Shown: positions 58,482 to 59,774 of the stretch, piece after piece | Numbering within the stretch: the stretch's first letter is position 1 | How the letters are laid out: each line of letters starts with the position of its first letter | DNA from: Nannocystis bainbridge | Lineage (GTDB): Bacteria > Myxococcota_A > Polyangia > Nannocystales > Nannocystaceae | Direction of reading: 5' to 3' | DNA length: 64,000 bases | Assembly: GCF_028368995.1 (NCBI RefSeq) | Contig: NZ_JAQNDL010000001.1 | Coordinates: 2,848,001 to 2,912,000, forward strand | Program-made: the position numbers and the translations under genes | Notes under the pieces: generated by a model | Database searches by the model: none | What the model was told of the DNA's origin: nothing | Seen by the model: only the letters and a program-made list of their open reading frames with translations

Positions 58482-59206
58482 CGCACCCCCGGCGGCAGCC
58501 GCCGCAGCTCGCGCTTGCTGATCTGCCGCTTCGCCGTCGCGTAGCGGTCCCAGTACCCGTACTGCTGGTTCAGCTCCCAGCCGCGCTGCCACATCGTCCC
58601 GAGCTTGCGCAGATCGCCGAGCAGCAGGTCGTGGACCTCGCGTTCCGGCTCGCTCGGCAGCGGCGACAGGGTGATGCGGTACCACTGCCCGTCGATCTTG
58701 CGGTACTGCGCCTCGCGGTCGATCAGCACCACCTCGATCTCGGGCGGCGGGGCCGCCGGCCCCGGCACGAACGGCAACTTCTTCAGCAGGCCCGAGTCGG
58801 GGCACACGTACACCTCCGCCCGCCGCCAGCCGTGGCCGATCGGCCGCACGCCCCACGAGCCGTGCTCGTACAGGCTGTCGCCGATCTTCACCACGTTGGT
58901 GTAGACCATGTCGCGCAGGTGGTCGAGCACGTGCTTCTGCACCGCGCTCGTCACCCGCAGGTGCGCGGCGATCTCCGAGTGGACGGCGTCCCACCGGCGA
59001 CCGACCCGGCTGAGCAGGAACCGGTGCAGCGGCGCCAGATTCTCGCTGAGGTACTTCGAGCGCCGATGTCGCTCCTTGATCGGCTCGACGTACGCGGCGG
59101 TCTCCGGCTCGGCGCGGCGGCGCATCGCCGCCCGTCCCCCTCCCTTGCCCCAAGCGCCGCCGCGGCGCGGCCGCTCGATAATCACTTCATACATGTCCCA
59201 ACGCAT
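58478..59206 (-). CDS. Conserved hypothetical basic protein, first gene of the rtcB-prfH operon
   Basis: MRWDMYEVIIERPR..LSENLAPLHRFLLSRVGRRWDAVHSEI..HVLDHL..YVCPDSGLL; stop overlaps the rtcB start. Confidence 0.8.
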   Translation of the reverse strand: MRWDMYEVIIERPRRGGAWGKGGGRAAMRRRAEPETAAYVEPIKERHRRSKYLSENLAPLHRFLLSRVGRRWDAVHSEIAAHLRVTSAVQKHVLDHLRDMVYTNVVKIGDSLYEHGSWGVRPIGHGWRRAEVYVCPDSGLLKKLPFVPGPAAPPPEIEVVLIDREAQYRKIDGQWYRITLSPLPSEPEREVHDLLLGDLRKLGTMWQRGWELNQQYGYWDRYATAKRQISKRELRRLPPGVR

Positions 59207-59740
59207 TCAACACCTCGCCTCTCCGCCCTCGCGGGCGATGGGGTCGATCTCACAGAAATCACAGCAGTTCGAATTGCCCATGGTGGTATTCTCGACACAC
59301 GACAATGCCCGGGGCACGCGCGGCGACGCTGCCCCCATTCGCCGCAATGGCGAATGAACAATGGGAGGCCTCCGCCGCCGCGTCAGGCCGGCCCGCGGGG
59401 GCGAGGCGAGGCCGCGACGCGCGAAGACGTCGCAGCCTCACCTCGCCCCGCGCGGGCCCTCGCTGGTGGGCTCGAGGCGCCCAGAGCGGCCGGAAACGGC
59501 CTTCTGGGCCCCAGGAGCGGCGTCCGGCAGCACGCGCGGGCGTCGTCACGAGGACGGCGCGGACGGCGGGTCGCGTCGCCTACGACGGCAGACGCACACC
59601 TCACCGCCTTGCGGCGTGAAGTCCCTCGGCGTCCGAGATCGGACTGCGCGAAGGCGAACGGACGCGGCCAGCGGGCCTGCGTTCGAGCGGATGTGGCTCA
59701 GTGGCGAGACATGACACGAACCGCCTGGTGAGAGGCGATG
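59207..59740 (-). ncRNA. Candidate large structured leader RNA
   Basis: Several hairpins with GCAA or GCGA tetraloops or a UUCG-containing loop; G.U pairs favour the minus strand; no credible long CDS. Confidence 0.55.
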
Positions 59741-59745
59741 GGCAC

Positions 59746-59774
59746 TCTATACGGTACGACCTCGGCGGCGTCAA
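59746..59774 (-). promoter_or_regulatory. Sigma70-like promoter of the rtcB-prfH operon
   Basis: TTGACG (59774-59769), 17-nt spacer, TATAGA (59751-59746). Confidence 0.65.

Follow-up and report, generated by a model that had tools for sequence, protein, structure and literature searches.

In a stretch of 64,000 nucleotides (nt) of the Nannocystis bainbridge genome (contig NZ_JAQNDL010000001.1, positions 2,848,001 to 2,912,000; the whole stretch is called the window here), a large, conserved and structured element, most likely cis-regulatory and outside the families of Rfam, stands ahead of an operon of three genes, p242, rtcB and prfH, that would serve ribosome rescue and RNA repair. Near the 5′ end of this leader there is an open reading frame (ORF) of four sense codons, which we call the mini-ORF, and directly before p242 there is a second upstream ORF (uORF), which we call uORF2. 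To the reading that we favor we give about an even chance: the leader is a uORF-based element that couples the stalling of ribosomes to the expression of an operon for their repair, an element of the same kind as PA5471.1 of Pseudomonas aeruginosa and toiL of Escherichia coli.

In other words, what tells a cell that its ribosomes need mending, and how does it get the message to the genes that do the work? A partial literature search brought up no work on a leader or uORF of rtcB or prfH outside P. aeruginosa, nor any on Nannocystis, and in the paper on E. coli rtcB2–prfH that we consulted for its regulation (PMC9223846), the words "leader" and "upstream" are absent and no natural promoter is discussed.

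Results

A Very Short Reading Frame at the Head of the Leader

Our comparison set holds 18 distinct full leaders that precede p242 homologues, taken from relatives, one metagenome-assembled genome and metagenome contigs, and spanning the GTDB genera g1–g4 of one family in addition to the metagenomes; the leader of this window (G000) is the reference. (Another, L043, lost its 5′ end where its contig ends and is additional to the 18.) The parts of the reference leader are listed here in the order of transcription; identities are to G000, first in four other Nannocystis genomes and then in a fifth, G003.

59774–59769, minus strand: −35-like hexamer TTGACG; TTGAC is kept at a constant distance from the mini-ORF in homologous leaders
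59751–59746, minus strand: −10-like hexamer TATAGA behind a 17-nt spacer; the "TA" 17 nt after TTGAC is kept in homologues
59740–59650, minus strand: 5′ block; identity 97–98%, 87% in G003
59739–59720, minus strand: candidate 5′-terminal hairpin P1, from a local minimum-free-energy (MFE) fold; AUCGCCU (59739–59733), loop, AGGCGGU (59726–59720)
59712–59698, minus strand: mini-ORF, in the reference ATG TCT CGC CAC TGA (M-S-R-H-stop); 18 of 18 homologous leaders have a mini-ORF
59697–59648, minus strand: C-rich, G-poor tract (C 0.46, G 0.28) directly behind the mini-ORF, a candidate rut-like site for the loading of Rho
59649–59460, minus strand: variable middle with lineage-specific hairpins; identity 62–65%, 43% in G003
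59458–59391, minus strand: near-perfect 68-nt hairpin of about 30 bp with a UCUUCG loop (helix 16 of the consensus, 29 pairs, 6 of them compensatory); identity 77–86%, 69% in G003
59390–59282, minus strand: 3′ block, a stacked-stem domain in which 59382–59373 pairs with 59328–59319 and encloses the hairpin 59356–59336; local z −2.2; identity 86–95%, 90% in G003
59281–59207, minus strand: uORF2, 24 codons, starting ATGGGCAAT, with its TGA (59209–59207) abutting the p242 start codon at 59206; identity 88–89%, 84% in G003

All 18 leaders open alike, with TTGAC, a "TA" about 17 nt on, an ATG about 33 nt further and then a very short frame, which has three or four sense codons in 17 of them. The peptides vary (MSRH, MSRL, MSRR, MLRL, MRR, MTR, MCY, MRY, MCH and MCR), and so do the stop codons: 13 are TGA, 3 TAA and 2 TAG, and the exchange can be seen where L032 reads CGC CGC TGA and L131 reads CGC CGC TAG. 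There are synonymous differences as well (TCT/TCG and CGC/CGT). At about 70% G+C, we estimate from base composition that well under a tenth of ATGs would meet a stop in their first four codons. That so short a frame is retained while its stop codon changes points to selection for the frame itself, beyond any motif in the RNA.

In the reference, transcription is predicted to start at about 59739–59740, and the mini-ORF then begins some 28 nt into the transcript. The promoter was not called by a consensus scanner, because its −10 hexamer lacks the final T; the sequence TTGACG-17-TATAGA is nonetheless where a preliminary description of this DNA had put it, as are the hairpins that the description had listed (59601–59619, 59574–59587, 59479–59509, 59391–59458, 59336–59356 and 59224–59237). 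What had escaped that description, while the elements that it did name are present, were the mini-ORF, uORF2 and p242.

The tract that follows the mini-ORF stop may also be telling. In 14 of the 18 leaders, C exceeds G over the 50 nt after the stop, with a mean difference (C minus G) of +0.12 compared with −0.04 in the rest of the leaders, and the first 100 nt of the leader fold no better than their shuffles (z −0.74). The tract thus has the look of a Rho-loading site and is a candidate for one, though composition by itself does not establish that Rho loads there.

The Second Frame and the Start of p242

uORF2 contains the Shine–Dalgarno region of p242 (GGAGAGGCGAGG). An ORF with the uORF2 start context is found also in L032, L043, L044 and L131, where it ends 0–5 nt before the p242 start or overlaps it. 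The encoded peptides are not conserved past MGN or MGT; a peptide that is free to change and an end that stays in place suggest that what matters is the arrival of translation at the p242 start. In G000, the junction of the uORF2 stop and the p242 start (59204–59209) reads TGAATG, and in four of six Nannocystis genomes (L027–L030) it reads TGATTG, and p242 would start there at the TTG or at an ATG four codons downstream. Public annotations of p242 mostly begin at that downstream ATG (the rows with 98% coverage).

Conservation

The leader is present in single copy: an nhmmer profile built from the 18 sequences matches this locus only in the 11-Mb genome (E ≤ 1). It aligns over its full length in four other Nannocystis genomes (81–83% identity) and over most of its length in the fifth, G003 (74%). 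The 5′ and 3′ blocks are better kept than the downstream p242 gene, the coding DNA of which is 78–89% identical across the five genomes. Could the leader hide a long coding frame? The leader alignments contain frame-breaking indels of 1–2 nt, and six leader ORFs of 46–117 aa, on both strands, matched no Pfam family at E ≤ 0.1, which together argue against such a frame on either strand. What persists from genus to genus is limited to the promoter, the region of the mini-ORF and the features of the start region, and in eight readable metagenome loci of other phyla (a ninth, L075, ends at a contig end), none of the features of the leader is visible.

Some observations on the surroundings of these leaders deserve a place here. 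Five distant metagenome loci (L069, L072, L080, L086 and L100) have an SPFH/band-7-like gene, a short spacer and then p242–rtcB; the spacers hold a GC hairpin (GCGGCCGGAAGGATCCGGCCGC type), and a mini-ORF leader is not visible in them. In L129 (genome G062), repeat units of about 27–30 nt (GGCGCGGCGGAGCGGGCTCAGGGATAG-like) fill roughly 200–430 nt upstream of the leader promoter, and in L033 (genome G012), head-to-tail units of about 18 nt (CTGCATCGCTGCGCGTCG-like) lie between the mini-ORF and p242, at about 1290–1450, both as judged by eye. Two soil runs that are labeled metatranscriptomic (and flagged "probably DNA," so that they are uninformative on expression) contain contigs with relatives, 80–99% alike, of parts of the leader and p242. 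Contigs that correspond to 59165–59378 and 59648–59761 of the window are 90–97% alike to the 3′ block and the 5′ block, and therefore close relatives with this leader occur in soil samples; one soil contig spans the kinase gene into the 5′ block.

Local Structure

The whole leader (59195–59745) has an MFE of −319.9 kcal/mol, compared with −274.4 ± 7.6 in 100 shuffles, none of which matches it (z −6.0), so the structure that had been claimed for it exceeds that of shuffled controls. When the leader was folded in six pieces, the 68-nt hairpin reached z −8.3 and the remaining pieces −2.2, −2.0, −0.7, −0.7 and +1.25; the excess thus stems mainly from that one hairpin, with structure predictions being unreliable for RNAs of 550 nt at 71% G+C.

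Covariation offers a separate view. The RNAalifold consensus of the six Nannocystis leaders has 177 pairs, and 95.5% of the cells in the six-leader alignment are paired. Both sides change in 9 pairs, a number that none of 500 shuffles attained (3.6 ± 1.5), and sliding the partners gave 1–4; of these compensatory pairs, the 68-nt hairpin has 6, helix 9 has 2 and helix 14 has 1. With only six sequences, all of them related, the support that this lends to local structure in the RNA is modest, but it is real. The middle of the leader contains one conserved hairpin (about 59470–59518), which is helix 15 of the consensus with 19 pairs and 94.6% of cells paired; the hairpins at 59601–59619 and 59574–59587 sit in its poorly conserved parts and are altered or deleted in relatives. 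Helices 17–19, in the 3′ block, are invariant within the genus, and the metagenome relative L043 keeps a stem and a hairpin there (by eye) with a different sequence.

At the very 5′ end, a hairpin like P1 is predicted in about 13 of the 18 leaders with a median z of −1.0, a modest support that comes from single-sequence folds, since MAFFT, given the 5′ regions of 17 leaders, does not bring their structures into register. In P1, the 5′ strand of the long-range pairing would have a nearby partner instead.

No Rfam family accounts for the element. Between 55000 and 64000 of the window at E ≤ 1, Rfam returned nothing beyond two chance matches far below their gathering scores, mir-1304 (28 bits, where 90 are required) and sR14 (18.9, where 38 are required), and seven homologous loci gave no match at the gathering score. 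The preliminary description had inferred an undescribed large cis-regulatory RNA or noncoding RNA, and the Rfam scans, the compensatory local pairs and the two blocks conserved above the level of coding DNA support an element that is outside Rfam and most likely cis-regulatory. We also asked about mimicry of 16S rRNA and set the idea aside: the leader and the 16S rRNA gene of its own genome share only 7–13-nt chance matches (blastn-short, best E 0.63), and a 9-mer common to both (CACCAUGGG) is within expectation.

The Long-Range Closure

The 9 nt UCGCCUCUC (59738–59730) are perfectly complementary to GAGAGGCGA (59223–59215), as had been noted, and were said to close the whole domain. In the MFE fold and the alifold consensus they do: about 33 nt of the 5′ block pair with the 3′ block in both, with the 9-bp stem included, and the consensus engages nearly the whole 5′ block in this way. 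The pairing joins CAGGCGGUUCG (59727–59717) to CGAACUGCUGUG (59271–59260), UCUCGCCAC to GUGUCGAGA, and UCAUG to CAUGG, which is to say the start codons of the two uORFs to each other, and the MFE folds of 15 of 15 leaders folded show the leader-ORF region paired with the start region of the regulated gene. Covariation, which speaks for the local hairpins, does not extend to this closure. Of its 9 pairs, 7 are invariant, 1 turns into a wobble and 1 breaks; over the long-range helices 1–4, the 5 pairs that vary yield 1 wobble and 4 breaks. Helices that are either invariant or broken gain no argument from covariation, and with 30 nt of coding sequence appended, the ensemble probability of the 9-bp closure is about 0.25.

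For the 5′ segment in Nannocystis, the Shine–Dalgarno window of p242 is the best partner that the leader offers (no more than 1% of the windows do as well), and it is near the best in L044, L035, L042 and L131; it is not preferred in L032, L033, the L034 group, L047, L136, L129 and L130. Taken as 22-nt segments, the 5′ end and the Shine–Dalgarno window pair with a median z of −1.2.

The Operon and Its Neighbors

The leader fills most of a gap of 589 nt on the minus strand (59795–59207), with genes on the same strand at both flanks.

61286–59796, minus strand: serine/threonine kinase gene (Pkinase, 1.1e-44), upstream of the leader
59206–58478, minus strand: p242, first gene of the operon, an unannotated 242-aa ORF of an uncharacterized conserved family
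58421–57294, minus strand: rtcB, RNA ligase of the release-factor-H-linked type (PF01139, 3.5e-72; NF007153/PRK09588, 531.8 bits; TIGR03073, 482.1 bits)
57297–56650, minus strand: prfH-like release factor (TIGR03072, 160.9 bits, just under the cut-off of 166.65), with an RF-1 domain and a GGQ motif in the translation

The prfH start overlaps the rtcB stop, and 56 nt separate the end of p242 from rtcB. The leader had been described as standing ahead of an rtcB–prfH operon; it is indeed upstream of both genes, and the one that it adjoins is p242 and not rtcB. With p242 next, and then rtcB and prfH, the leader therefore belongs to a three-gene operon.

No Pfam, NCBIfam or PADLOC family matched p242, and the 342 homologues found at E ≤ 1e-3 mark it as a widespread family in which every named member is "hypothetical." Its conserved motifs are MRxDMxKVIVERPR, NENLAPLRRFL and SAVQKHVLDH. 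It adjoins rtcB in many loci (L026–L150), in the order p242–rtcB(–prfH) or rtcB–prfH–p242, the latter often with a shorter form of about 150–170 aa. Its AlphaFold model (pLDDT 79.4) matched nothing in the PDB at E ≤ 0.001 in Foldseek (best 0.61), and residues of about 50–147 are weakly winged-helix-like (VIA-align, best Z 5.7, root-mean-square deviation 2.9 over 66 residues), where a Z under 8 may mean only a common arrangement. Burroughs and Aravind, in the part of PMC6514570 used here, describe unnamed accessory proteins ("RFR") around RFH–RtcB, and p242 may already be among the accessory genes of RFH–RtcB operons in the supplement of that paper. Whatever its name, p242 deserves notice as a third, conserved member of operons of this type.

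The kinase gene keeps its position and orientation upstream of the leader in other Nannocystis genomes (its 3′ end aligns), and a terminator-like stem with a T-run (59846–59831) lies within its last codons in G000 only.

Discussion

How the Leader Might Work

We have tried to imagine how a frame of three or four codons could govern three genes, and the scheme that we favor runs as follows. The leader of about 530 nt would be the 5′ end of the p242–rtcB–prfH rescue and repair transcript, made from the conserved sigma-70-like promoter, and a ribosome would initiate on the mini-ORF. If that ribosome departs quickly, then the leader would adopt a repressing state; if it lingers—with a damaged decoding center, an inhibitor or a failed termination as the cause—then it would occupy the 5′ block, and the operon would be expressed. 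The repair genes would be switched on by the very defect that they mend and would fall silent once ribosomes function. Because the ORF is so short, a ribosome would cover nearly the same RNA whether it stalled on the start codon, on a sense codon or on the stop codon, and such a sensor would therefore be generic. By analogy with known leader ORFs, we infer that the mini-ORF is translated and that it senses stalling.

How would occupancy be converted into expression? Our first preference is Rho-dependent termination, which a ribosome would prevent by sitting over the C-rich tract that follows the mini-ORF. Second would be a 5′ block that pairs with the start regions of uORF2 and p242 and so masks them and third, an intrinsic terminator.

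A narrower version, which we put forward tentatively and think doubtful as a whole, would have the leader serve specifically to detect ribosomes that are damaged. With its decoding center cut (the colicin-E3 type of damage), a ribosome would still start on the mini-ORF, fail to decode the next codon or the stop and park there, and the parked ribosome would keep the leader open, either by blocking the loading of Rho or by keeping the 5′ block off the uORF2 and p242 starts. p242, RtcB and PrfH would then be made, PrfH would release the parked ribosomes and RtcB would reseal them, and so a feedback loop would close. The long covarying spacer of hairpins would act as a timer between the loading of the mini-ORF and the synthesis of the 3′ block.

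Points That Weigh Against Stall Sensing

Several of our results pull away from the coupling of stalling to expression, and we prefer to worry about them together. To begin with, both the start of the transcript and the translation of the mini-ORF are predictions made from DNA sequence. One leader, L033, departs from the pattern with a mini-ORF of eight codons (MKFALIDT). Shine–Dalgarno-like complementarity upstream of the mini-ORF is weak, at −3.3 to −9.6 kcal/mol compared with −6.6 to −17.2 for p242, and the conserved GGCGG(U) before the mini-ORF may, if the predicted fold is right, be the 3′ strand of P1 instead of a ribosome-binding sequence. The leaders are related to one another, so our counts overstate their independence.

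Tests of the pairing and terminator outputs belong here as well. As duplexes (RNAduplex), the 5′ block and the last 92 nt of the leaders are not more stable than dinucleotide shuffles (z −2.9 to +2.4), and the shuffle fraction is at or below 0.05 in 1 of 18 leaders (L044, 0.005). We also forced the footprint of the mini-ORF to be unpaired in seven leaders and judged the predicted accessibility of the p242 start against control windows. This masking raised accessibility above all controls in two of the seven, L047 (none of 11 windows as good) and L136 (none of 23); there was no such rise in L130 (7 of 25), L035, L129 and L034, and for G000 the value went down, from 0.459 to 0.310. With so mixed an outcome, we make no claim for a masking mechanism. 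As for an intrinsic terminator, a simple scan for a stem with a T-run found none in the leader, the scanner being crude and the terminators of very G+C-rich genomes possibly lacking T-runs. Finally, sister genera drive the same genes from a sigma-54/RtcR-like region without any such leader, which makes the leader one lineage's solution.

Other Explanations

Could the mini-ORF be incidental and the long-range pairing everything? The leader would then occlude the start regions of uORF2 and p242 until RNA processing, by RNase III within the 30-bp hairpin or by a ribotoxin, sets them free. A hairpin of 68 nt is long enough for an RNase III-type substrate, and this one is kept by compensatory changes; the pairing of some 33 nt of the two blocks in the MFE and consensus folds, 9-bp stem included, and the rank of the Shine–Dalgarno window as a partner in Nannocystis and in the four leaders where it is near the best, all lean the same way. 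Against this stand the same helices 1–4 with their breaks and their want of covariation, the low ensemble probability, the block duplexes that do no better than shuffles and the seven leaders or leader groups that prefer another partner, and the turnover of stop codons in the mini-ORF would be left unexplained. We consider the idea improbable. In the form in which it had first been offered, as a possible sensor whose cleavage frees the ribosome-binding site, it is not supported; it suffers further from the G000 masking result, which did not open the p242 start.

We judge with similar reserve the notion that the blocks bind something (a metabolite, fragments of damaged RNA or a protein, p242 itself for example, in autoregulation). 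Two long blocks that are more conserved than coding DNA, a structured stacked-stem domain at the 3′ end (z −2.2) and a protein with a segment that weakly resembles winged-helix nucleic-acid-binding domains are what one would hope to find; set against them are the absence of an Rfam family, a conservation of the blocks that reaches only the genus and its nearest relatives, and the weakness of the hint from the p242 fold (best Z 5.7).

Is the conservation perhaps that of DNA, with operators or a vestigial sigma-54 region at work, or simply that of recent common descent? The other genomes of the family supply the reason to ask. In 12 of 12 loci fetched (L153–L164), the order is rtcB–prfH–short p242, and upstream there is a sigma-54-like promoter of the type TGGCAC-N5-GTGC (TGGCACGGGATGTGCT type), with about three GGTGC...GCACC repeats and a divergent gene, the product of which is RtcR-like by eye. 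In these sister genera, rtcB starts CATCATGGGCA(A/C), which matches the uORF2 start context (CATGGGCAA), so that uORF2 may descend from what was once the start of rtcB, although the shared stretch is only about 10 nt long and G000 lacks the −12 GC of a sigma-54 promoter. Besides, all six genomes of Nannocystis are closely related. Nevertheless, the compensatory pairs exceed both controls, the blocks are better kept than the coding DNA beside them, with the middle down to 43–65%, and the −12 GC is missing from G000; we regard an explanation by DNA sites or by descent as very improbable.

A stand-alone noncoding RNA that merely happens to sit upstream, and that RtcB would have as partner or substrate in the manner of a Y RNA or a tRNA, has in its favor a long, structured region and the fact that RNA-repair operons with Ro/Rsr carry Y-RNA- or tRNA-like RNAs, and this idea of the preliminary description is not supported and seems very improbable, since ARAGORN finds no tRNA or transfer-messenger RNA gene between 58900 and 60100, Rfam offers no Y RNA or anything else at E ≤ 1 beyond its two chance matches, a simple scan sees no terminator-like site between the leader and p242, uORF2 runs directly into the p242 start and there is no similarity to 16S rRNA (best E 0.63).

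Comparison with Known Systems

The nearest parallel is in P. aeruginosa, where PA5471 (armZ) is RtcB-like and belongs to the cluster PRK09588 (PMC3516279, in the part used here) and is cotranscribed with PA5470 (prfH). According to the portions of PMC3516279, PMC12057347 and PMC13041342 that we drew on, the armZ–prfH operon is induced by ribosome-targeting drugs through a 13-aa leader peptide, PA5471.1, encoded about 250 bp upstream; a ribosome that stalls on this peptide keeps a terminator from forming, and an amber mutation at codon 3 activates expression. The preliminary description, while it saw the leader of an RNA-repair operon, had missed this control of the orthologous operon. The two leaders are likened by layout and gene context and not by sequence alignment: both precede a PRK09588-type RtcB-like gene and then prfH (the Nannocystis rtcB matches NF007153, "PRK09588.1"), and both place a short ORF hundreds of bases before the first long gene. 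They differ in the size of that ORF (13 aa in the one, three or four codons in the other) and in its distance from the first gene, which is about 250 bp in Pseudomonas and 506 nt in Nannocystis (148–516 nt in relatives). A 3:4 terminator hairpin has been proposed for Pseudomonas, whereas a simple scan found none in Nannocystis, and in Nannocystis a second uORF and the additional gene p242 intervene before rtcB is reached.

The uORF toiL, on the topAI–yjhQ transcript of E. coli, senses many translation stresses and couples occlusion of the ribosome-binding site to Rho (PMC12121999, in part). Occlusion and Rho termination are both candidate outputs in the Nannocystis leader as well. The genes downstream of toiL are unrelated, a toxin–antitoxin pair, and the Nannocystis leader is much longer and more structured.

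At tnaC, a ribosome stalled at the stop codon covers an adjacent Rho-loading site, and TnaC, a peptide of 24 residues, senses tryptophan in the exit tunnel. The C-rich, G-poor tract behind the mini-ORF stop in 14 of 18 leaders, a candidate Rho site, recalls the first of these features, but not the second, for a product of three or four residues cannot work through the exit tunnel. Among the systems set beside ours, this leader of the tna operon is the example of Rho-dependent attenuation (PMC8429421, in part).

RtcR/sigma-54 control, too, regulates RtcB-type repair genes, and a region that resembles it is what we see upstream of rtcB–prfH–p242 in the sister genera; Nannocystis has instead a co-oriented kinase gene upstream, a sigma-70-like promoter without the −12 GC and a mini-ORF leader. 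One bacterial family would thus hold two controls of the same genes, a sigma-54/RtcR-like region and a uORF leader.

What would set the Nannocystis leader apart from PA5471.1 and toiL is an ORF of three or four codons, a very long covarying spacer and, third, a second uORF that would provide coupling, together with an extra first gene. For the bench, it reduces to a compact test element: an ORF of 15 nt, a C-rich tract and a set of defined hairpins. And as a second and distant lineage with a mini-ORF leader before the same genes, it suggests that a design may have recurred in which stalled ribosomes induce their own repair.

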